Below, one piece after another: positions 52,314 to 64,000 of a stretch of DNA of 64,000 nucleotides. This DNA comes from an uncultured Rikenellaceae bacterium (GTDB taxonomy: Bacteria > Bacteroidota > Bacteroidia > Bacteroidales > VadinHA17), in NCBI GenBank assembly GCA_963802145.1, contig CAWDHN010000005.1, positions 188,023-252,022 on the forward strand, given 5' to 3'. The position numbers were made by a program, and so were the translations under genes. A model generated the notes under the pieces. It had not been told where the DNA came from. It did not search any database and saw only the letters and a list, made by a program, of their open reading frames with translations. Positions within the stretch are counted from its first letter, which is position 1. Every line of letters begins with the position of its first letter.

Positions 52314-53402
52314 ATGGCTTCAGGACTTTCGGTAATACTCGACAAAAACAATTACGACAGGTCAGACATTCTGGCCTTGCTGCAGTGCGGTGAGGAAGAT
52401 GCACCTCAGCTCTATCGCAGGGCTGCTGCCGTAAGAGACATGCACATTGGAAACAATGTCTATCTCAGGGGGCTCATAGAATACTCGAACATATGCGGCA
52501 AGAACTGTCTCTACTGCGGCATAAGGCGTGAAAATCACCACATCGACCGATACACAATGACCAACGACGAGGTCATTGAGGCAGCCATGACAGCCTACAG
52601 GCTCAACTACGGATCAATAGCCATCCAGTCGGGCGAAAACCAGTCGAAGGCATTTGTTGACAACATCGAGGAACTTGTACGGACCATCAGGCAACTGACC
52701 GGAGGGAGACTGGGAATAACCCTTTCCCTCGGGGAGCAGTCCCGGGAGACCTACCAGCGGTGGTACGATGCAGGTGCTCACCGGTACCTTCTGCGTGTTG
52801 AGGCTGCGAGCGAGGCCCTCTACCGCAAGGTGCACCCTGATGACGACATGCACAGGTACAACAGGCGAATAGAGTGTCTCAGGACAATACAGGAGACAGG
52901 TTACCAGACGGGTTCAGGGGTTATGGTAGGGTTGCCATACCAGACTATGAGCCACCTTGCAGATGATATTATTTTCATGCGCGATTTTGACATTGACATG
53001 TGCGGCATGGGGCCCTTTATTGAACACTCTGACACCCCGCTGGGCGCAAGGGGAACTGACAACCTCTTCATCAAGGAACGCTTTAATCTGACTCTCAGGA
53101 TGATCGCCATTATCAGGATCATCATGAAGGATATCAACATCGTCGCCTCCACTGCCATGCAGACCATTGACCCTTCCGGCCGCGAGAAGGCAATTGCCTG
53201 CGGGGCAAATGTGGTGATGCCCAACCTCACCCCGGCGCGTTACAGGCCAGGCTATCAGATCTATGAGGGCAAGCCCGGCTTCAGTGAAATAAATGAAACC
53301 AACATCAGTGGCCTTAACTTTAGCCTCATCCCGGGAATAACCCTCGGCCTTGGAATATGGGGCGATACTCCCCACTTCAACAGAAGGCAGGCCAGGCAGT
53401 GA
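52314..53402 (+). CDS. hydE: [FeFe]-hydrogenase maturase HydE (radical SAM)
   Basis: RGLIEYSN.C.KNC.YCGIR (CX3CX2C), MVGLPYQT, GMGPFIEH.DTP, GANVVMPN and Y.IYEGK. Confidence 0.9.
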   Translation: MASGLSVILDKNNYDRSDILALLQCGEEDAPQLYRRAAAVRDMHIGNNVYLRGLIEYSNICGKNCLYCGIRRENHHIDRYTMTNDEVIEAAMTAYRLNYGSIAIQSGENQSKAFVDNIEELVRTIRQLTGGRLGITLSLGEQSRETYQRWYDAGAHRYLLRVEAASEALYRKVHPDDDMHRYNRRIECLRTIQETGYQTGSGVMVGLPYQTMSHLADDIIFMRDFDIDMCGMGPFIEHSDTPLGARGTDNLFIKERFNLTLRMIAIIRIIMKDINIVASTAMQTIDPSGREKAIACGANVVMPNLTPARYRPGYQIYEGKPGFSEINETNISGLNFSLIPGITLGLGIWGDTPHFNRRQARQ

Positions 53403-53482: not shown

Positions 53483-56054
53483 ATGAAAAAGATACTCCTT
53501 TCATCTCTGATGCTGCTTGTATCACTGATGATGAATGCCCAGACCGGATTAAGCTATTACCTGCCGGCAAATGCGGATTACAACAATGATGTGCCCGCTC
53601 CTTCATCATTTATAGGGCATGAAGTGGGCGAGTGGCACGTGACCCATGACAAGCTGGTTGGGTATATGAAACTTCTTGATGCCATATCGGGAAGGGCACT
53701 CTGGGAAGAATATGGTAAGAGCTGGGAAGGCAGACCCCTGGGGCAGCTGATTGTCACATCGGAGGAGAATATGGGCAGGCTTGAGGAGATACGCCTTGAG
53801 CACCTCAGGCTCTCTGACCCTGCAGTCTCAAAATCGGTTACGACAGACAATATGCCCGTCATCATCAAGCTGGGATACGGGGTGCACGGCAATGAGTCCA
53901 GCGCACAGAACGCTTCCCTGCTCACTGCCTATTATCTTGTCGCCGGAGAAGGCGCTGAGATTGACAAAATATTGGCCAACGCAGTTATCCTGATTGACCC
54001 GGCACTGAATCCTGACGGCCTGCAGCGTCACTCGACGTGGGTCAATATGTACCGTGGCACGACCCTCACCACCGATCCGGCCGGCAGGGAGTTCAATGAG
54101 GCGTGGCCAGGCGGCAGGACAAATCACTACTGGTTTGACCTGAACCGCGATTACCTCATGCTGCAACAACCTGAGTCGGTGGGCCGTGTCCAGGCCTTCT
54201 TCCGCTGGATGCCCAACATTAACAACGATCACCACGAGATGGGCGCCAACTCTACCTTCTTCTTTCAGCCAGGCGTACAGTCGAGAAACAATCCCGTCGT
54301 TCCGCCGGAAAACCAGAAGTTAACGGCTGAGATCGGAAAATACCATGCAAGTCATCTTGACTCCATCGGAAGCCTTTACTATACTGAAGAGAGCTTTGAT
54401 GACTATTACCTCGGCAAGGGATCATCCTATCCCGATGTCCATGGCTCTGTCGGCATCCTCTATGAGCAGGCCGGAGTGAAAGGACATCTGCGTGATGTCC
54501 CCGGAGGAGTGCTCTCATTTCCATTCGCCATACGAAACCAGTTCACGGTGACCCTTTCTACAATCGAGGCCGGTATTGCGATGAGAACCAAGCTCCTGAA
54601 CATGCAGCGCGACTTCTATCTCTCGGCAATAAAAGAGGCGGAGGCCTTCCCGGTGAAAGGCTACATCTTCAATGCAGGGGATGACAGGAGTGCCGCCGGC
54701 AAGTTCATCGAGAACCTTCTGAGGCACAGGATTGAGGTTTACAGGTGCGGAAAGAACATAACCAAAAGCGGGGTAAGCTACACCACTGCCGACAGCTGGT
54801 TCGTCCCGATGAACCAAAAGGAGTTCCGGTTTGTCAGAAGCCTCTTTGAACCTGTCTTCACTTTTGCAGACACGGTCTTTTATGACATATCCACCTGGGT
54901 CATGCCCATGGCCTTCAACCTGAGCTATACTGCACTTAACGGCGGTGAGGCTACCGGAATGACCGGAGAGAGAGTGACTGAGGCGCCCATGCCGGAGGGA
55001 CGGATGGCAGGTGTTGAAAATCCTTATGCATGGCTCTTCGAATGGACCGACTCCTATTCACCGAAGGCACTCTATAAGATACAGCAGGCCGGAATTACGG
55101 CCCGGGTTTCGGCCAGACCATTCACTGCCACAACGGAAGGGAAAGAGAAGAAGTTCGGTTACGGTACTATAATGGTCCATTCAGGTGAGAATCTCCTTTC
55201 ATCTGAGGAGATGAAGGCCTTTATGGCCAATGTGGCAAAAGAGTGCGGCATAACCGTCTACGGTGTCTCCACCGGCCTCACTCCTTCAGGCATTGACCTG
55301 GGCAGCAATGATTTCGTTGTCCTCTCGAAGCCTTCGGTGCTGCTTCTGACAGATGAGGGCATCCCCAGCGATGATGCCGGCGAGATCTGGCAACTCCTGG
55401 ATGTGCGTTACGGCATGCAGGTCACCCTGATGCCTGCCTCAAGGATGTCGTCGGCCGCCCTGGCGAAGTATAATGTGATAATCATCGCAGGAAATCCTTC
55501 CATGCCTCAGGCAACCGTTGACCGGATCAGGGAGTGGAACCGTGGCGGAGGCACCATCCTGGCCTATAAGGGTGGCAACAGGTGGGTAGCCGGTAACGGT
55601 TTCGCCGACATAAGTTATATAGATAATGCAGCGGTTCCGGCCACTGTGGAGCGCAGTTATGCCAACAGGTCTGCAGACAGGGCCCTGCATACGATCCCGG
55701 GCTCTATATTCAGGACAAAACTGGACCTGACGCACCCTCTCTGTTACGGATACACAACAGAGTATCTGCCGGTGTTCAAGAGCGAGTCCACGGCAGTGAA
55801 GATGACCGGCAACACCTGGAACAACCCGGTAAGATATACCTCCGATCCGCTGACTGAGCGGATTTTCCTCAAAGGAAAACACTGAGAGGATAAGCAACAG
55901 TGTCTTTGCCTGCGTGCACCAGGGGTCAGGCAGGGTGATATCGATATATGACGACACCAACTTCCGGGCTATATGGTTCGGTACGCAAAGGATATTTGCC
56001 AACGCTGTTTTCTTCGGGCAGACGCTCAGGCAGGGAAGCAGATACGACCAATAG
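53483..56054 (+). pseudogene. Secreted M14 zinc carboxypeptidase with a C-terminal GATase-like domain; +1 frameshift at about 55853 truncates the last ~65 aa (possibly a sequencing error)
   Basis: VHGNES, DLNRD and NNDHHEMG. After ...SDPL the shifted frame continues LSGFSSKEN...GSGRVISIYDDTNFRAIWFGTQRIFANAVFF to a TAG at 56052-56054. Confidence 0.82.
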
Positions 56055-56550
56055 CTATATCCTCGATCTCACGCAGGGCTTTCTCAAGGGAGACAAACTG
56101 TGTCCTGTCGCCTGCCAGCTCAAGAAGTATCAGTCCGGCGGGCTCGCCGAAATATACTTCATTCACACCCAGCCTGGTCCTGATGACACATCCGAAAGTG
56201 GTAAGCAGCTTCTGAACCTGTATCCCAAGGTCGTCACGCCGTGGCACAAGGGCGCCGAGCAACGTGATGCCGTCACATTCCACCGGCGCATCAGAGGGGC
56301 CGTGAGAGAAGGCCATCTCATCCACGGAGATGCCCTCCATCTTTTGCAGTTTTGCAGCCAGCTCTTCACAGTCGTCAGCGAGGCCTGCAAGGTGTATGAC
56401 CATATACCCTTCGCGGCTGCACCGCTCTTCGCTCAGCTCGTGAAAACCAAGGCGTGTGCTGATGACGCCGGCGTGATCAGACAGGGCTTTCTGAACCAGC
56501 CCTGCCTCCTTGATCCTGTCGGTGATCTTGATTCCGATTATCCTGACCAT
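56026..56550 (-). CDS. TM1266-family iron-only hydrogenase system putative regulator, tandem duplicated domain
   Basis: Two repeats: IIGIKITDR..A..VQ..LS.....I.TRLGFHE and LLGALVPRR......VQKLLT.FGCVIRTRLG.NE. The gene lies downstream of hydG. Confidence 0.8.
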   Translation of the reverse strand: MVRIIGIKITDRIKEAGLVQKALSDHAGVISTRLGFHELSEERCSREGYMVIHLAGLADDCEELAAKLQKMEGISVDEMAFSHGPSDAPVECDGITLLGALVPRRDDLGIQVQKLLTTFGCVIRTRLGVNEVYFGEPAGLILLELAGDRTQFVSLEKALREIEDIAIGRICFPA

Positions 56551-56561
56551 AGTACAATTAT

Positions 56562-57983
56562 TTAGTAGTAAAGGTCCCGCTCACCGTTCCTGATGCGGTC
56601 AATCTTCTTCCTGATACTCTCCTTCATTCCCTCGTCGAGGTCTGCCATATTCTTCTCTATGGCCTTCCATCCCTTCTCGGCCAGGGCGGGGGAGGCATAG
56701 TCAACGATATATTCTGACAGTGTCAGTATGGCGTTGGGGGTGCAGTAACGCTTGATGAATCCCGGGACGGAGAACTCCATGAAATGTTCGCCGGTGCGTC
56801 CGAGCCTGTAGCAGGCGGTGCAGAACGATGGGATATAATCATTGTCGATGAGCTCGTCAATTACATCGGCAAGCGATCTTTCGTCATTGATCTTGAACTG
56901 CTCGCGGTTGAGGTTCTGCTGCTCGTTCCTTGAGGCGGAGTAACCGCCGAGCTCCAGCTTTGTACCTCCGTCTATCTGCGACACTCCGAAAGCCATGGCC
57001 TCCGCCCTGACATCAGGCGTCTCACGTGCTGTGAGAATCAGTCCTGTATAGGGAACTGCAAGACGCAGTATGGCAATCAGCTTCTTGAAATTGTCGTCGC
57101 TGACATAATATTTGCCGTTCAGGTTCAGCATGGATGCATCCTTGATCCTTGGAAACGAGATGGTGTGCGGTCCGACATTATAACAGGCCTCGAGGTGGTT
57201 GGTATGCCTCACCAGTCCCAGGACCTCGAACCTCCAGTCGTACAGTCCGAACAGCGCCCCGATGCCCACATCGTCAATGCCGGCCTCCTGGGCCCTGTCA
57301 AGGGCAGTGAGCCTCCAGTTGTAATCACTCTTCTTACCTCCAAGGTGATAAAGCTTGTATGCATCCGGGTCATAAGTCTCCTGGAAGATCTGGTAGGTGC
57401 CTATGCCTGAACGGCCAACAGTCCGGAAGCCGTCAATGTCTAGAGGTGCGGCATTGATATTGACCCTTCTTATCTCCCCTCTGCCTTTTCTGATACTGTA
57501 AACAAGCTTTACTGTATGGGCAATGAATTCCGGATCATACTCAGGATGCTCGCCGTAAACCAGTATAAGTCTCTTCTGGCCGTTATCCTCGAGTGCCTCC
57601 ACCTCAGCAGTTATCTCCTGGTCGCTGAGGGTCTTGCGTCTTGCCTCCTTGTTGGTCACCCTGAATCCGCAATACTGGCAGTTGTTGCTGCACTTGTTAC
57701 CTATGTAGAGTGGGGCAAAGAGCACTATCCTGTTGCCATATACCTTTTTCTTAAGTTCGCGTGCCCCGGCCTTGATCTCCTCAACCAGTTCGCCTTCAGC
57801 GTTGATAAGGGATGCCGTCTCGGCAAGGGTGAGACGCTCCTTCGACAGTGATTTTGCGATCAGTTCCCTGACCCTTGCCTTATCAGCCTTTGCATTGTTT
57901 ATTATCGACCACAGCTCGGCGGGATCAATGAAAGATTCCATCCGCCGGTCCGGTATACTCAGTTTTTCAGGATTAAATTTCAT
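56562..57983 (-). CDS. hydG: [FeFe]-hydrogenase maturase HydG (radical SAM)
   Basis: LFAPLYIGNKCSNNCQYCGF, RRVNINAAP, QETY, GPHTISFPR, C-terminal SFCTACYR...FC/YCTPNA and GERDLYY. Confidence 0.95.
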   Translation of the reverse strand: MKFNPEKLSIPDRRMESFIDPAELWSIINNAKADKARVRELIAKSLSKERLTLAETASLINAEGELVEEIKAGARELKKKVYGNRIVLFAPLYIGNKCSNNCQYCGFRVTNKEARRKTLSDQEITAEVEALEDNGQKRLILVYGEHPEYDPEFIAHTVKLVYSIRKGRGEIRRVNINAAPLDIDGFRTVGRSGIGTYQIFQETYDPDAYKLYHLGGKKSDYNWRLTALDRAQEAGIDDVGIGALFGLYDWRFEVLGLVRHTNHLEACYNVGPHTISFPRIKDASMLNLNGKYYVSDDNFKKLIAILRLAVPYTGLILTARETPDVRAEAMAFGVSQIDGGTKLELGGYSASRNEQQNLNREQFKINDERSLADVIDELIDNDYIPSFCTACYRLGRTGEHFMEFSVPGFIKRYCTPNAILTLSEYIVDYASPALAEKGWKAIEKNMADLDEGMKESIRKKIDRIRNGERDLYY

Positions 57984-58022
57984 CTTCTCATCTATTGAAT
58001 TCTTCCCCCTCGGATTAACACG

Positions 58023-58030
58023 CAAAGATA
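58023..58030 (-). promoter_or_regulatory. Bacteroidota -7 element (TATCTTTG) upstream of hydG
   Basis: Exact match on the minus strand about 40 nt upstream of the ATG, suggesting an internal hydG promoter. Confidence 0.5.
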
Positions 58031-58062: not shown

Positions 58063-58974
58063 TCAGAATATCAGCTCCTGCACCTCCATTACGCCTTCCG
58101 CAAGAAGCTTGTCTGCCGGCATGTCAGCATTGGAAGCATCAAGCCGTTTATGAAAGAAAAGGGTCATTCGTTTCCCCGGTATATCATCCTCATAATTCTC
58201 AAGATGCAGGTATATGTCAGGCAACAGTGAACCATTACCGGGTATGTAGACCATACCCCTTGAAAAAAATGTCTCCGCCGCACATGAGACTGCATAAAGT
58301 CCCGGTGGGGGGACCAGCTTTGTCCGCTCAGTAACAGGTATCTTAATAAGGGGCACGACGGGTGTTATGCCGGGGTCCTCTTTCACAGCCGTACCGATGA
58401 TAAGGTAGTAATGATCGAGGTACGCATTGGCGCGTTGTATATAGCCTGCAGAGAGAGCCTCTCTTATGCGTGTTGAGCTGACGGTCTCGTTCTGTACCTC
58501 CTGCATGGGTATCTCCTCGGCTTCAAAACCGTATTTGCCTCTCCACTCCCACAATGTCCGGTAATCGCCCTCCTGGTTATACCCGAAGTGGTGATTATGG
58601 CCCACCACAATCACTTTTGCCTTCAGTATACCACAAAGGATATCCCTGACAAACTCTTCGCTGGTGATGCGCGAGAACTCATGTGTGAACCCGATTATTA
58701 TGACATTGTCGAGTCCGGCCTTACGCAGCATTTCGATCTTCTCCTCTCCGGAACAGATCAGTTTCAGTCCCTTCCCGGCGCTCTCGGGATAGAGCACCAC
58801 CCTGGGGTGAGGATCGAATGTAATCAGGACGCTTTCACCGCCGGCATCTGCTGCCAGTTTCTTAAGGCGTCTTATGATGGTTTTGTGCCCGATATGGACT
58901 CCGTCGAAAGTGCCTGTCGTGACAACAGGTGAACTGATCACCGCTGCCTCCTCAAAGCTTCTGAAAATTCTCAT
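58063..58974 (-). CDS. ribF: RibF-like FMN adenylyltransferase (FAD synthetase) with a degenerate riboflavin-kinase domain
   Basis: The N-terminal GTFDGVHIGH, TFDPHPR, VVGHNHHFG and VSSTRIR motifs are intact. The C-terminal kinase motif G..IGFPTAN is not recognisable. Confidence 0.8.
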   Translation of the reverse strand: MRIFRSFEEAAVISSPVVTTGTFDGVHIGHKTIIRRLKKLAADAGGESVLITFDPHPRVVLYPESAGKGLKLICSGEEKIEMLRKAGLDNVIIIGFTHEFSRITSEEFVRDILCGILKAKVIVVGHNHHFGYNQEGDYRTLWEWRGKYGFEAEEIPMQEVQNETVSSTRIREALSAGYIQRANAYLDHYYLIIGTAVKEDPGITPVVPLIKIPVTERTKLVPPPGLYAVSCAAETFFSRGMVYIPGNGSLLPDIYLHLENYEDDIPGKRMTLFFHKRLDASNADMPADKLLAEGVMEVQELIF

Positions 58975-58985
58975 TGAGCTGGCGG

Positions 58986-59609
58986 CTACCTCTTTTCCTT
59001 GACAAAATAGGCCACCTTCTCTATGGAGGTGATCATGTCAAACTCCTCGAGCCAGACATTGTCAGGCACATTCAGCGGGACGGTGGTGAAGTTCATTATC
59101 CCCTTGATACCGTTGCTCACAAGCATTGCCGTCACCGTCACTGCCTGGTCCGGGGGAACGGTCAGCACCGCAATCGTAATATCCAGCTCGCTCTTGAGCT
59201 TCTTCATCTGGTCAAGGTGGTAGCACTTAACCCCCGCAACCACCTTGTCAACCTTCTGAGGGTCGACGTCAAGGGCAGCAACCACGTTCATGTTGGTGCG
59301 CTTTCCCCTGAAGTACCCTGTTATGGCCCGGCCCAGGTTGCCCATGCCTATTATTGCCACGTTCAGTCCGCTGGGAGCGTCGATTATTGACCCGATTGTT
59401 TTTATCAGTTCCCTCACGTCATATCCCTTGCGCATCACGCTGCCATACCCGATAAGCATCAGATCGCGCCTGACCTGCACGGCTGTTATGTGAAGCATGG
59501 CTGCAAGCTCGTGTGAAAAAACATAATTGCGGTTCACCGCAAGCGAGGATATCAGTGCCCGTCTGTACTGACTGAGGCGTTCGACTGTCTTTCCCGGTAG
59601 TGTCTTCAT
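58986..59609 (-). CDS. rex: Redox-sensing transcriptional repressor Rex
   Basis: TVERLSQYRR, S.ELA.......QVRRDL..IG.G....GY, Rossmann IGMGNLGRA, and GIKGIMNF. Confidence 0.93.
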   Translation of the reverse strand: MKTLPGKTVERLSQYRRALISSLAVNRNYVFSHELAAMLHITAVQVRRDLMLIGYGSVMRKGYDVRELIKTIGSIIDAPSGLNVAIIGMGNLGRAITGYFRGKRTNMNVVAALDVDPQKVDKVVAGVKCYHLDQMKKLKSELDITIAVLTVPPDQAVTVTAMLVSNGIKGIMNFTTVPLNVPDNVWLEEFDMITSIEKVAYFVKEKR

Positions 59610-60754
59610 AATTCTGCCTTTAGGTTGGTGACCTGTGATTTTGGAATTATAACCTTAAAAACTGACCCCTTGTCAGGGATGCTCTCCACGTCAATGACCC
59701 CGTGGTACAGCTCCACCACCTTTTTGACGATGGAGAGTCCGAGGCCGCTGCCGCTGATATTACGTGTCTTGTCATTCTTTATGCGTGAAAACTCTTCGAA
59801 GAGTATGTCGCGCTCATCGGCATTCATTCCTATTCCGGTATCCGCCACCGAGAATATGAACTCACTGTCATTGCAGTCGACCGTAATAGTCACCGTTCCT
59901 CCTGTCCTGTTGTACTTAACTGCATTTGACACAAGATTGTTCATAATGATCTCAAAATCATTCGGATCAGCCCATATGGTCTCACATCCCCTTATGTCAG
60001 TCACGAAGTGGATATCCTTGTGTATCGCATATGGACTGACGGTCACCACTGCCATCGAGACCAGGTCCTTCAGGTTTACATTCTGCAACTTCTCGAGCTG
60101 GCGCTCGAAACTCACCTTGGTAAAGTCGAGGAGGTCCATGATCAGGTTACGCATGCTGTCAATGCGCTGCAGCGATCTCTCTATGGCAGATGCATACTCG
60201 TCAAGGGAGTCGCCCATCTGCCTCTCCTGCATCATCTTCAGGTAACCCTCTATGGCATTCAGCGGCGCCTTCAGCTCATGTGAGAGTACTGAGAGGAACT
60301 GGAACCTCACCTTTCTTCCCTCCACCTTGAGCTTGTGGGTTATCCTCCTCAGGTACTGCTGCTTGGTGATCTGTTCTATCGAGGCCTTGAGCTCCTGCGG
60401 GGTAAATGGTTTGGGGATGAAGTCAATGGCACCGTCATTGTGTGCCCTGACCGCTACATCAATCGAAGCGTATGACGTTATCATCGCCACCACGATATCA
60501 TAGTTCTTCTTCCTCACGTACTCGAGGACCTCCACACCCTGAATGCCGGGGAGCTTGTTGTCAAGCAGCAGGATATCAGGCATCTCGCGGTCTATGATCT
60601 CAATACCCTCTTCACCGGTAGCCGCTTCCAGGATATTAAAAGTGTAGTCTTCGTCCATGAATGGATAGGTGACATGGAAGTTGCCAAGGATCCTGGTCAC
60701 GCCTGACCTGATGCCGGGTTCATCATCCACCACAAGTATTTTTAGCTGTGCCAT
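59606..60754 (-). CDS. Hybrid receiver-histidine kinase (Rec-HisKA-HATPase)
   Basis: ILVVDDE, LLDNKLPG, DFIPKPF, H-box SHELKAPL, NLVSNAVKY, DTGIG and GSGLGL. Confidence 0.92.
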   Translation of the reverse strand: MAQLKILVVDDEPGIRSGVTRILGNFHVTYPFMDEDYTFNILEAATGEEGIEIIDREMPDILLLDNKLPGIQGVEVLEYVRKKNYDIVVAMITSYASIDVAVRAHNDGAIDFIPKPFTPQELKASIEQITKQQYLRRITHKLKVEGRKVRFQFLSVLSHELKAPLNAIEGYLKMMQERQMGDSLDEYASAIERSLQRIDSMRNLIMDLLDFTKVSFERQLEKLQNVNLKDLVSMAVVTVSPYAIHKDIHFVTDIRGCETIWADPNDFEIIMNNLVSNAVKYNRTGGTVTITVDCNDSEFIFSVADTGIGMNADERDILFEEFSRIKNDKTRNISGSGLGLSIVKKVVELYHGVIDVESIPDKGSVFKVIIPKSQVTNLKAEL

Positions 60755-60755
60755 T

Positions 60756-61151
60756 TCAGATCTTCAGTAGTTTTTTGATTTCAAGGTCAAGCTGTTCGGG
60801 TCTCACCCCCTTTTCCAGGTAGAGGTCTGCCCTGATCCACTCGCGGTCCTGGCCGCTGTTCAGTCCAAAAGTTATCCCGGTCTCCCTTGAGACTGCCGTG
60901 GCCAGTATTACAGGCACCTCCGGGTATTTTCTCTTAAGCTTGTAACAGAGGATAAAGCCGCTGTCATCACTCTCCATCATCAGGTCGAAGACAGCGATAT
61001 CAGGTTTCATCTTTGCGATCACCTGCTCAGCCTCCGCCTGGCTCTCCACAGCCACCACCTCATAGCCTGCCCTGCGAAGGTGAAAGGCTACCTGGAAGAG
61101 GTAGTCGGGGTCATCATCGGCAAGCAGGACTGTATATATTTTACTGCTCAT
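60756..61151 (-). CDS. Single-domain response regulator (receiver only)
   Basis: VLLADDD, phospho-Asp in AVFDLMM, ILATAV and LEK. Confidence 0.9.
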   Translation of the reverse strand: MSSKIYTVLLADDDPDYLFQVAFHLRRAGYEVVAVESQAEAEQVIAKMKPDIAVFDLMMESDDSGFILCYKLKRKYPEVPVILATAVSRETGITFGLNSGQDREWIRADLYLEKGVRPEQLDLEIKKLLKI

Positions 61152-61206
61152 TATATGTGTAAGTTATCGTTATTTCATTTAATATAAACCAGGCGAGCCG
61201 GTATCT

Positions 61207-63171
61207 CTACTCAGGCCTCCTGGGAAGTATTATCTTAAAGGTTGTGCCCGTGGGTCCTTTTGACGGTTCATTGTTTGTCTCAACGGTGATCTGTCCCTTG
61301 TGCATCTTCACTATTCCATAGGTGGTGGCCAGTCCCAGACCCGTTCCCTTGCCAAGGCCCTTGGTGGTAAAGAAGGGTTCGAATATCTTCGGTTTATCCT
61401 CCTCCCTTATGCCGGTTCCTGTGTCAGAGACGATAAAAATAACGTCGCTGACCGTATCCTCAAGGCATATCTTAAGCGTTCCGCCGTCAGGCATTGCGTC
61501 GATGGCGTTCCTGAACAGGTTGGTGAGCACCTGGGTCATCTGTTCAGAGTCTATGGCAGCGTCAGGGCTTGTGGTGCGGTCTTCAATTACAGTACTGATA
61601 TTTTCCGGGAACACCACTCCGGCAACACTGCTCTCAGTCAGTTTTCTTATGTCAATAACCTGGTGGTTAACCTGGTTCTTGCGGGCAAAGTTAAGCAGTC
61701 CGCCCACGATCTTCTTGCAGCGTGCCGCCTGTTCAACGATAAGCTGGATATCATCGCGCAACGGATCCTCCGGTTTGACCTCATCGAGGAGTATGTTGCT
61801 GTACATGATCACCACTCCCAGGGGGTTATTGAGTTCGTGTGCTATGCCTGCAGATAGCTGCCCCATGTGTGCAAGCTTCTCCGACTGTTTGAGGGCGTTC
61901 TGCATGGTTGTCAGTTTGGCGTTGGAGAGTGCCAGGTCCTGCACTGACCTGTGCAGCTTCTCAATGGTATATGGCAGGCACATCTCCTCCTCGGCCAGTC
62001 CCTTGACAATTGCCAGGGCATGGTCATAGCAGGTGTCATAGCCGCATGCGCCGCAGTTCAGATGGTCTTTGGGCGTCAGCTTTCCCATGGAGGCGAGAAC
62101 CTTAATCACCTCTCCCTCTTCACCGATCATCTGGCGCTTATCTTCCGGCTTAAAGCGCACAGAAAGGTCAAGCTTGTCATAGGTCTCCAGGTTTTTGCTC
62201 CAGTCATCCATGTCGAGGCTGGTCATCTTCTGCTGTGCATAGGTGCTTACCAGTGCCCTCCTGTTGTACTGTTTGCCTCCCTTGCTCATGCCGGGGCCCA
62301 TTATGCATCCTTCACAACATAGCAGTTCGAGGTGCTGTCCGCCTATCATCCCCTCCTCAAATTCCTTTATGGCCTCCTGGAAGTCAATCCTTCCTTCGGC
62401 AGCTATAATGTTTCCGGTAATGGCGTCATCATTCACGCCGGCTGTCTGAAGGAGTCCTCTCGTCACCGGGAAGATGGCTCCGCGTCCTCCCAGCGGCGGG
62501 TCGAACTCTGAAGGAGCCACCGTTTCAGGAGTGATACCGGCTGTTTCAAACATCTCGCGCAGCTCGAGGAATGTAATGGCGACGTCGACCTCAGTGTTCT
62601 CGGCTTTCTTTGCCACGCAGGGCCCGATGAATACAACAGGCAGGTCCTCTCCGTGTTTTTCCCGCATCACCCTTGTCATAGCCACCATGGGCGAGACAAC
62701 CGGGATGAGGTTCTGAGTGAGGTCAGGGTGGTAGAACCTGATAAAGGAGACGATGGCGGGGCAGTCTGATGAGATATAGTTTTCCGCTCCGGCCTCGCTG
62801 ATCAGGTTGCGGTAGCGGTGTGCCACCAGATCGGCGCCGAAGGAGACCTCGACGACATAATCAAAGCCGAGGGCCCTGATCATGCCAACCACCTTCTGAT
62901 GGTCAGTCACGTCATGGAACTCTGCCGGAAAGCTGGGTGCCACCAGTGCCGCCTTCCTGCCGGGTTTCTCAAGTACCTTGGTCACCATTTCAACGGTGTT
63001 CACGAACACCTTGGCGCCCTGGCTGCACACCTTCGTGCAGTTGCCGCATGCCACGCACCTCTCGGTGATCACCTCCGCCTGTCCGCCTACAATGCGTATG
63101 GCACGCGCCGGGCACTCCCTCACGCAGGTGTAACAGGTACGGCATAATTCTTTTATGGTATATACTAACAT
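61207..63171 (-). CDS. Putative sensory [FeFe]-hydrogenase fused to a histidine kinase (group C1-like)
   Basis: 2[4Fe-4S] (CRTCYTCVRECP, CVACGNCTKVC), H-cluster motifs SSDCP / GPCVAKKAE / ELLCCEGCIMGPG, an FeS motif CGACGYDTC...C, H-box AHELNNPL and the HATPase motif FFTTK..GKGTGLGL. Confidence 0.9.
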   Translation of the reverse strand: MLVYTIKELCRTCYTCVRECPARAIRIVGGQAEVITERCVACGNCTKVCSQGAKVFVNTVEMVTKVLEKPGRKAALVAPSFPAEFHDVTDHQKVVGMIRALGFDYVVEVSFGADLVAHRYRNLISEAGAENYISSDCPAIVSFIRFYHPDLTQNLIPVVSPMVAMTRVMREKHGEDLPVVFIGPCVAKKAENTEVDVAITFLELREMFETAGITPETVAPSEFDPPLGGRGAIFPVTRGLLQTAGVNDDAITGNIIAAEGRIDFQEAIKEFEEGMIGGQHLELLCCEGCIMGPGMSKGGKQYNRRALVSTYAQQKMTSLDMDDWSKNLETYDKLDLSVRFKPEDKRQMIGEEGEVIKVLASMGKLTPKDHLNCGACGYDTCYDHALAIVKGLAEEEMCLPYTIEKLHRSVQDLALSNAKLTTMQNALKQSEKLAHMGQLSAGIAHELNNPLGVVIMYSNILLDEVKPEDPLRDDIQLIVEQAARCKKIVGGLLNFARKNQVNHQVIDIRKLTESSVAGVVFPENISTVIEDRTTSPDAAIDSEQMTQVLTNLFRNAIDAMPDGGTLKICLEDTVSDVIFIVSDTGTGIREEDKPKIFEPFFTTKGLGKGTGLGLATTYGIVKMHKGQITVETNNEPSKGPTGTTFKIILPRRPE

Positions 63172-63182
63172 TATCCTTTCAC

Positions 63183-64000
63183 TTAAAGCAGTACATCGCG
63201 TTTGCTGAAATGTGTATGGAACAGCGTCTTATCAGCAAGCTCGGAGCACTGTTCAAATACCTTGCCATAGAGGTCCGAAACCGAGGCAGACTGTTCAGGA
63301 CCGCGCACCGCCTCCTGGTCGTCGGTCTGCCATATGAATCTCGATCGCAGGCGTACGGCCTCCTTCGAGCCTGCAGGGAGCATTCCTCCCCCGTTTACGC
63401 AACCGCCGGGGCATGCCATCACCTCCACAAGGTCATAATGTGTTCCACCGTCAAGCATCTGCCTCAGCTTCTCCAGTCCCTTCAGTCCGTCCACCACGGC
63501 TACGGTATAGGTTACCCCACCGGCGGTAACCATGGCTTCCCTGAAGCTGCCGTTATTGCGCAGCTTTTTGACGGCCGGTTTGTCAGCCTCCTTCTCTCCT
63601 GCCCTGACAGCGATGGAACGGAGGACAGACTCGGTGATGCCTCCTGCGGCTTCGGCAAGCAGTGAGGCTGAGCTGCGGAGAGCCATGGGTTCGTCTGCAG
63701 GCTCGGGATCGATGTTTGTTATGTCGATACCATACAGGATGATCAGCCTGGCCAGCTCCCTGACAGTAAGAACGGTGTCAATGTCACTGATGCCCTTCCT
63801 GGTCATGCTGTCACGGCGCGCCTCGAACTTCATCGCTGTGCAGGGTGTGACCGAAACGGTGTATACCCTCGATTTATCAGCCGTTGCCGGGACAACTGAC
63901 TTAATGATTGCGCCTGAGATCTGCTGCGGCGTCTTCAGCGTTGACAGCAGCGGCAGCAGCTCCGGGGTGAACTGTTCGCAGTATTTGACCCATGCCGGAC
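63183..64000 (-). CDS. [FeFe]-hydrogenase (group A-like) H-domain, C-terminal part; start lies beyond the window
   Basis: The frame is open to the window edge: (C)PAWVKYCE...KTPQQ...VTPCTAMKFE...D.VLTVRELA...EVMACPGGCVNGGG...LFHTHF. Confidence 0.85.
   Translation of the reverse strand, partial: PAWVKYCEQFTPELLPLLSTLKTPQQISGAIIKSVVPATADKSRVYTVSVTPCTAMKFEARRDSMTRKGISDIDTVLTVRELARLIILYGIDITNIDPEPADEPMALRSSASLLAEAAGGITESVLRSIAVRAGEKEADKPAVKKLRNNGSFREAMVTAGGVTYTVAVVDGLKGLEKLRQMLDGGTHYDLVEVMACPGGCVNGGGMLPAGSKEAVRLRSRFIWQTDDQEAVRGPEQSASVSDLYGKVFEQCSELADKTLFHTHFSKRDVLL

Follow-up and report, generated by a model that had tools for sequence, protein, structure and literature searches.

Does a histidine kinase that carries a hydrogenase as its input module report H2 to the cell? 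This question is raised by hydHK, a gene in a 64,000-nt stretch of DNA from an uncultured Rikenellaceae bacterium (contig CAWDHN010000005.1, positions 188,023 to 252,022; G000:C5:188023-252022 in our numbering), hereafter called the window. The genome is 3.7 Mb in size and 97.6% complete, its nearest public relatives are metagenome-assembled genomes of uncultured Rikenellaceae/Bacteroidales, and near-identical DNA was seen in sediment and freshwater-sediment metagenomes from several studies. hydHK (61207-63171, minus strand) has a stop-free reading frame for a protein of 654 aa, P0001, which we call HydHK. Judged from its sequence, HydHK is probably a soluble histidine kinase with a complete sensor-type [FeFe] hydrogenase as input module, and we put the probability of this reading, taken together with the whole pathway proposed below, at about 0.6. 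H2 sensing by [FeFe] hydrogenases in bacteria is still unproven. The two characterised sensor-type enzymes have either a PAS domain or nothing further at the C-terminus, which rules out a direct assay of their output; a direct kinase fusion offers a simple read-out, namely autophosphorylation under H2 versus argon.

Translation, Pfam and NCBIfam profiles, an AlphaFold model and Foldseek searches together gave the following picture of HydHK, all parts of which lie on the minus strand. The N-terminal ferredoxin-like domain (aa 4-53, 63013-63162, Fer4 family match) has room for two [4Fe-4S] clusters, and its eight cysteines (10, 13, 16, 20, 39, 42, 45 and 49) are invariant or nearly so in an alignment of 34 sequences. 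The H-domain follows (aa 75-293, 62293-62949) and matches PF02906, Fe_hyd_lg_C, with an E-value of 1.6e-43 and 149.5 bits against a cut-off of 22.1. A C-terminal Cx2Cx4Cx16C [4Fe-4S] motif (C373, C376, C381 and C398; 61978-62055), also described in M2e/M2f hydrogenases (PMC8163306), was read from the translation; its cysteines are invariant and PF04060 matches at aa 371-400. The protein ends in a transmitter (61216-61866) made up of HisKA (aa 436-499) and HATPase_c (aa 541-652), with Pfam scores of 49.5 and 85 bits, both above the cut-offs. The H-box reads IAHEL and carries His445, and the N, G1, F and G2 boxes are present as NLFRNAIDAM, DTGTGI, FEPFFTTK and GTGLGL; by H-box His, kinase boxes and profile scores HydHK belongs with the HisKA-type histidine kinases.

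The AlphaFold2 model, built on the 34-sequence alignment, has a mean pLDDT of 87.8. Its first ~430 aa resemble solved [FeFe] hydrogenases, with a Foldseek probability of 1.00 for CbA5H, DdH, CpI and the HydA of HydABC, and its last ~240 aa resemble the cytoplasmic domain of ZraS (TM 0.81, 30% identity); no solved structure of a sensor-type [FeFe] enzyme was among the sequence- or fold-search matches. According to DSSP on this model, one continuous helix (aa 399-464, 61780-61977) runs from Cys398 into DHp helix 1 with His445. No PAS domain was matched by Pfam in HydHK, and a hidden PAS between the Fe-S motif and HisKA was ruled out: there is no space for a PAS fold, because the helix is unbroken from the last Fe-S cysteine to the DHp histidine. 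An earlier note on this DNA, made from the letters alone, had claimed a hydrogenase-like sensor fused to HisKA/HATPase without PAS, and the Pfam domains and the continuous helix of the model bear this out. That the helix starts right after Cys398, the fourth cluster ligand, and itself carries His445 suggests, as modelled, a mechanical coupling that leads directly from the cluster to the kinase.

For the H-cluster site we aligned HydHK with 33 full-length fused relatives and with 145 representatives of 50%-identity clusters, the latter taken from the 150 cluster representatives closest to the hydrogenase part. The cysteines C137, C185, C286 and C289 are invariant or nearly so in both alignments (34 and 145 sequences), and K188 and E191, the equivalents of CpI K358 and E361, are kept in HydHK and across the sensor family. 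The three strings that the earlier note had given as altered relative to catalytic enzymes are all found in HydHK: SSDCP at aa 134-138, GPCVAKKAE at aa 183-191 and ELLCCEGC at aa 282-289. The substitutions in them stand, including Leu for Met497, while the register of the third motif had to be corrected. This motif is CxGC in the sensor family, one residue shorter than the group A CxGGC, and for this reason its ligands are C286, the second cysteine of the "CC", and C289. Not all three changes are departures from the family. Gly at the Met353 position (G183) is found in 134 of the 145 representatives and Leu at the Met497 position (L284) in 98, so both are the family norm, and only the Asp is unusual.

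These residues bear on whether the H-domain holds the [2Fe] subcluster at all. Without it HydHK would sense redox state or O2 simply through its Fe-S clusters and would resemble the eukaryotic, hydrogenase-like Nar1/IOP proteins. The CpI variant M497L lacks a properly inserted [2Fe] cluster (PMC10055695), and the H-cluster motifs are barely findable in some group C1 proteins (PMC11406978). In HydHK, by contrast, C137, C185, C286, C289, K188 and E191 are conserved family-wide, TamHydS binds the cofactor despite a Leu in place of Met497 (PMC8163306), and HydE, HydF and HydG are all encoded in the genome. We consider a cofactor-free H-domain highly improbable and hold to a complete sensor-type hydrogenase.

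The Asp at the CpI proton-relay Cys299 position is Asp136, with its codon at 62764-62766 (minus strand, within SSDCP). All 116 full-length close homologues carry it, as do all loci down to 57% sensor identity, whereas it occurs in none of the other 144 representatives of the 50%-identity clusters. Across the sensor family the position is variable, with Ala, Pro, Thr or Ser, and Asp occurs in the HydHK lineage only; the commonest residues at position 299 in sensory enzymes have been given as Ala, Cys, Pro and Ser (PMC10055695). According to the same work, Asp is the sole Cys299 replacement that retains activity in prototypical enzymes. In HydHK, Asp136 could itself relay protons. The engineered CpI variant C299D (PDB 6GLZ, 8PVM) likewise has Asp in place of the proton-relay Cys beside a cluster-ligand Cys. 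It is, however, a fast group A enzyme whose proton path is otherwise intact, whereas the Asp of HydHK is natural and conserved throughout its clade and sits in a sensor scaffold without E279 and E282.

The neighbouring HydA differs from prototypical enzymes at the same place. The window holds the 3' part of hydA (63183-64000, minus strand), and the gene, at L004:1206-2921 (minus strand) in the extended locus L004, continues past the window end. Its motifs read SACPAW and TPCTAMKFE, that is Cys299 to Ala, Met353 to Thr and Lys358 to Met, and it scores under the NCBIfam A6 cut-off (551 vs 765). The altered motifs (SACPAW/TPCxAMKFE) are invariant in all loci with at least 68% sensor identity; the more distant loci L067, L074, L078 and L081 have canonical HydA motifs. 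A HydABC-type HydA with a natural Asp at the Cys299 position was seen in the metagenome loci L068 and L069 (SGDCPAW, SSDCPAF), and the HydA of L070 and L077 reads TSCSPGW, with Ser at the position of the ligand Cys300.

Such a pattern would also arise from an exchange of roles, with the HydA of the clade crippled and HydHK, which kept the Lys and may use an Asp relay, serving both as the main site at which the complex reacts with H2 and as the source of the kinase signal. The near-clade restriction of the altered HydA motifs, the retained activity of Asp enzymes (PMC10055695) and the presence of the solved CpI C299D structures among the fold matches of HydHK all fit this idea. The order of events does not, as Asp136 predates the HydA changes: L067 and L074 combine Asp136 with a canonical HydA. 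Moreover, the remaining proton path is missing in HydHK, the studied sensor-type enzymes are slow, and the genome encodes two further canonical group A [FeFe] hydrogenases. An exchange of roles therefore seems to us very unlikely, and HydHK is taken below as a sensor.

HydHK shares most of the features of HydS-like group C proteins, with two N-terminal [4Fe-4S] motifs, the C-terminal Cx2Cx4Cx16C motif, and D136, G183, L284 and the loss of E279/E282 at the proton path and at positions 353 and 497. The C-terminal PAS domain of such sensors is absent from HydHK and present in a second sensor hydrogenase nearby, HydS2. TmHydS of Thermotoga maritima (M2f, group C; PMC10055695) is like HydHK in its two N-terminal [4Fe-4S] clusters, Gly at 353, lack of the relay Cys, C-terminal four-Cys cluster and position next to a HydABC operon, but it ends in PAS and has Ala at 299 and Ser at 497, where HydHK ends in a kinase and has Asp and Leu. 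TamHydS of Thermoanaerobacter mathranii (M2e, "group D"; PMC8163306) likewise lacks PAS and has Leu at 497 and the Cx2Cx4Cx16C motif, and its gene is found upstream of those for a bifurcating hydrogenase and adjoins one for a kinase-like ATPase. In contrast to HydHK it stands alone, with Ser at 353, and the kinase-like partner is encoded separately. Both TmHydS and TamHydS bind the H-cluster and react with H2 at a low rate (PMC10055695, PMC8163306). The regulatory [NiFe] system HoxBC/HoxJ/HoxA (group 2b; PMC5665086, PMC5037454) follows the same logic, in that a slow hydrogenase signals the presence of H2 to a histidine kinase controlling hydrogenase genes; it differs in its unrelated metal site and fold, in the use of separate proteins that communicate via a PAS-like domain, and in having a known DNA-binding regulator.

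Kinase-fused proteins of this kind are not new. The putative sensory groups in HydDB are C1 (kinase-linked), C2 and C3 (PMC5037454), and a C1 hydrogenase near hnd genes was reported in Petrimonas (PMC7768429). A 2024 survey (PMC11406978) describes HATPase or His-kinase domains in group C proteins, of which the operon-linked ones are named BfuT and assigned to HydDB C3. The BfuT of the sub-type V BfuABCT clusters of Hydrogenedentota, Calditrichota and Bacteroidota is likewise a HisKA-fused sensor directly downstream of the A subunit, and in three Bacteroidota bfuT occurs twice, downstream of bfuA and again upstream of bfuC, as in the hydHK/HydS2 locus. BfuT is known from genome surveys only; that study does not discuss receivers, Rex or an Asp at 299, and files the protein as C3, not C1.

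What would receive the signal is encoded directly downstream. P0002 (60756-61151, minus strand) is a stand-alone receiver of 131 aa (PF00072, 56.4 bits) whose residues D12/D13/D14, D56, T85 and K114 are invariant in 54 orthologues. P0003 (59606-60754, minus strand) is a REC-HisKA-HATPase protein of 382 aa by Pfam, with the acceptor D65, H159 and intact N and G1 boxes, which are conserved in all of the 50-53 orthologues that cover them. This order of a lone receiver and a receiver-kinase protein is as the earlier note had it, judged by Pfam and coordinates, and its statement that the three signalling proteins have no DNA-binding output also agrees with our domain searches, which found no DNA-binding domain in P0001, P0002 or P0003. 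The claim of a multi-step phosphorelay did not hold. No Hpt or Spo0B-like domain was matched by Pfam in the three proteins, and in P0003 the REC domain lies N-terminally of an intact kinase core. P0003 is thus, by its domains, a putative second kinase tier, and the label of a strict His-Asp-His-Asp phosphorelay is inaccurate because there is no Hpt domain and P0003 is an intact kinase. Triads of a sensor kinase, a single-domain receiver and a REC-kinase also adjoin the bacteriophytochromes of Rhodopseudomonas and Rhizobium. They show the same three-gene wiring without DNA-binding output and differ in their light input and in their kinase families; we take this resemblance as a lead only. A census of the 36 receiver domains of the genome pointed to no P0003 target.

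The operon order is hydC-hydB-hydA-hydHK-REC-REC-HK-rex-ribF-hydG, of which hydC (NuoE-like), hydB (NuoF-like), the promoter and the Rex boxes sit past the window end (L004). Gaps between the genes are small: 11 nt between hydA and hydHK, 55 nt between hydHK and the receiver gene, 1 nt between the receiver and REC-kinase genes, a 4-nt overlap of the latter with rex, 11 nt between rex and ribF and 37 nt between ribF and hydG. rex (58986-59609, minus strand) encodes an NADH/NAD+-sensing repressor (NF003995, 186 bits vs a cut-off of 126), ribF (58063-58974, minus strand) a RibF-like FAD synthetase (PF06574, E 4e-43), and hydG (56562-58025, minus strand), the last gene of the operon, a radical-SAM H-cluster maturase (TIGR03955, 474.6 bits vs a cut-off of 312). 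The maturase HydE (52314-53402, plus strand; TIGR03956, 324.9 bits vs a cut-off of 254.6) is encoded 3 kb from the operon, and HydF, above its curated cut-off, on contig C7. A scan for terminators and sigma-70 promoters between 55800 and 64000 gave counts not above those in shuffled sequence and was uninformative on internal transcription units.

This setting allows another view of the protein, namely that what HydHK senses is not free H2 but electron flux or redox state, acting as a fourth ("T") subunit of HydABC or as a ferredoxin partner that reports how reduced the pool is. Here the facts that hydHK follows hydA after 11 nt in every locus, that the equivalent protein is treated as subunit BfuT (PMC11406978), that electrons usually enter [FeFe] hydrogenases through an N-terminal dicluster domain (PMC8163306), and that rex in the operon implies a locus tuned to redox balance all count in its favour. 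Yet a plain redox sensor would need neither the residues that hold the [2Fe] subcluster, all of which are kept, nor a maturase in the operon, and docking of HydHK to HydABC or ferredoxin is putative. We regard a flux sensor as the less plausible option, though the one among the alternatives to be taken most seriously, and prefer HydHK as a sensor of H2 itself.

The earlier note had suggested that output might pass through Rex. Part of this is well founded, as rex comes directly after the REC-kinase gene and a conserved putative operator exists; a link from the kinase to Rex stays conjectural. The palindrome TTGTTAAT-AAAA-TAACAA occurs at a fixed place ~85 nt upstream of hydC in ~35 loci and forms a putative Rex operator with at most one mismatch to the Clostridiaceae consensus TTGTTAANNNNTTAACAA cited in PMC8457756. 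A second, weaker Rex box follows the first, and the pair overlaps a TTTG located 19 nt upstream of TAnnTTTG, the -33/-7 layout of the Bacteroidota promoter type (PMC7366714). In a scan with the Rex consensus the site at this locus is one of two in the 3.7-Mb genome with at most one mismatch; genome-wide, two Rex consensus sequences yielded too few good sites for defining a regulon. Because rex lies in the operon and the conserved putative operator covers the -33 element, Rex is likely the repressor of the whole operon including its own gene, and it is the predicted DNA-binding element visible at the locus.

Taken together, we propose the following course of events. HydE, HydF and HydG would assemble the H-cluster in the H-domain of HydHK, where H2 would react slowly with Asp136 as local proton acceptor and the electrons would reduce the accessory clusters. 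The redox state of the C-terminal [4Fe-4S] cluster would be transmitted mechanically through the 66-residue helix that Cys398 caps and that carries His445, such that cluster reduction would alter the DHp helix and hence His445 autophosphorylation. Asp56 of the lone receiver, Asp65 of the REC-kinase or both residues would then accept the phosphoryl group, and the REC-kinase would act as a second tier with its own target outside the locus. Rex probably represses the operon via the two operators over the -33 element and would add an NADH/NAD+ input. Several points weigh against this proposal. For the kinase-fused class we infer H-cluster insertion, H2 response and kinase activity alike; beyond position 299, HydHK has not kept the proton-path residues of group A (E279, E282), and alignments to 7P5H and 8A6T show a deletion or other residues in this region; the AlphaFold model depicts a cofactor-free monomer; no target of P0003 was found at the locus; co-transcription from hydC to hydG is putative; and the Rex consensus stems from Clostridia, not from Bacteroidota.

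The whole eleven-gene arrangement, PP2C <- HydS2 | HydC-HydB-HydA-HydHK-REC-REC/HK-Rex-RibF-HydG, is found in ~45 species-level Bacteroidales genomes or contigs with 57-99% sensor identity, and the HydHK-REC-REC/HK triad persists to ~41% identity even with different flanks. At 41-43% sensor identity the REC-kinase gains a PAS domain, and at 38-39% the fusions are accompanied by an NtrC-type regulator (REC, sigma-54 AAA+, HTH_8) instead of the receiver and REC-kinase, as seen at L084:10047-11405 and L086:9615-10997. Such a pairing of the distant direct fusions is what one would expect of a working sensor kinase. Among the 145 aligned representatives the kinase follows directly after the Fe-S motif in 36 and further on in 10. 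The full-length fusion was present in 23 of 400 evenly sampled other genomes of the phylum, and in 19 of 180 genera when the window genome is included. hydHK is thus an intact, strongly conserved gene and a member of a widespread type that earlier genome surveys had recorded, and since the kind is common and has been noted in the literature, its value is that of a test object rather than of a discovery. The lineage-specific parts, as read from the sequence, are the conserved Asp at 299, the altered neighbouring HydA and the well-defined predicted Rex promoter. What the locus adds is a natural Asp at the relay position, a conserved two-receiver wiring and a clear predicted Rex promoter.

Divergent from hydC, a second gene group (L004:5716-9074, plus strand) encodes a small thioredoxin-like [2Fe-2S] ferredoxin, HydS2 and a SpoIIE/PP2C phosphatase. 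HydS2 has 627 aa, a C-terminal PAS domain (PAS_10, 22.3 bits) and 40% identity to HydHK over the hydrogenase part. Since HydS2 is PAS-type and HydHK kinase-fused, two sensors with different types of output flank one hydrogenase operon. A third sensor-like hydrogenase of 464 aa, without PAS and M2e-like, is encoded on contig C10 (L061:4607-12273; G000:C10:588606-596272) in a locus that resembles that of TamHydS. The gene order there is HATPase, sensor, DRTGG, PHP, HATPase, a small ORF, HydB and HydA, and the motifs of this HydA are canonical (TSCCPGW, MPCLAKKYE). At the other end of the operon, a 205-aa ORF (55948-56565, plus strand), convergent with hydG, gave no Pfam or NCBIfam match.

Between promoter and hydC, the leader of the window genome contains a 49-bp unit repeated 4.7 times with 98% matches (L004:5346-5573), including the hairpin ACCGC-GTA-GCGGT. 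This array shifts the Rex boxes from ~85 nt to 285 nt upstream of hydC and is absent from the 99%-identical relative L005 and from one contig of run X6. Contigs C7, C8, C9 and C10 also bear dispersed copies of the unit. A CRISPR reading was ruled out, as whole units repeat without unique spacers. In the clade with 69-70% sensor identity, an extra Rex-box-like site lies between the sensor-kinase and lone receiver genes (L034:8767, L036:12073, L043:12037 and L065:10083), where the gap is longer than the 55 nt of the window, which has no Rex-box-like site; this hints at a Rex-controlled sub-operon in that clade. The sensor-kinase frames of L043 and L044 contain 41 and 23 stops next to intact neighbours, for which assembly indel errors are a more likely cause than decay.

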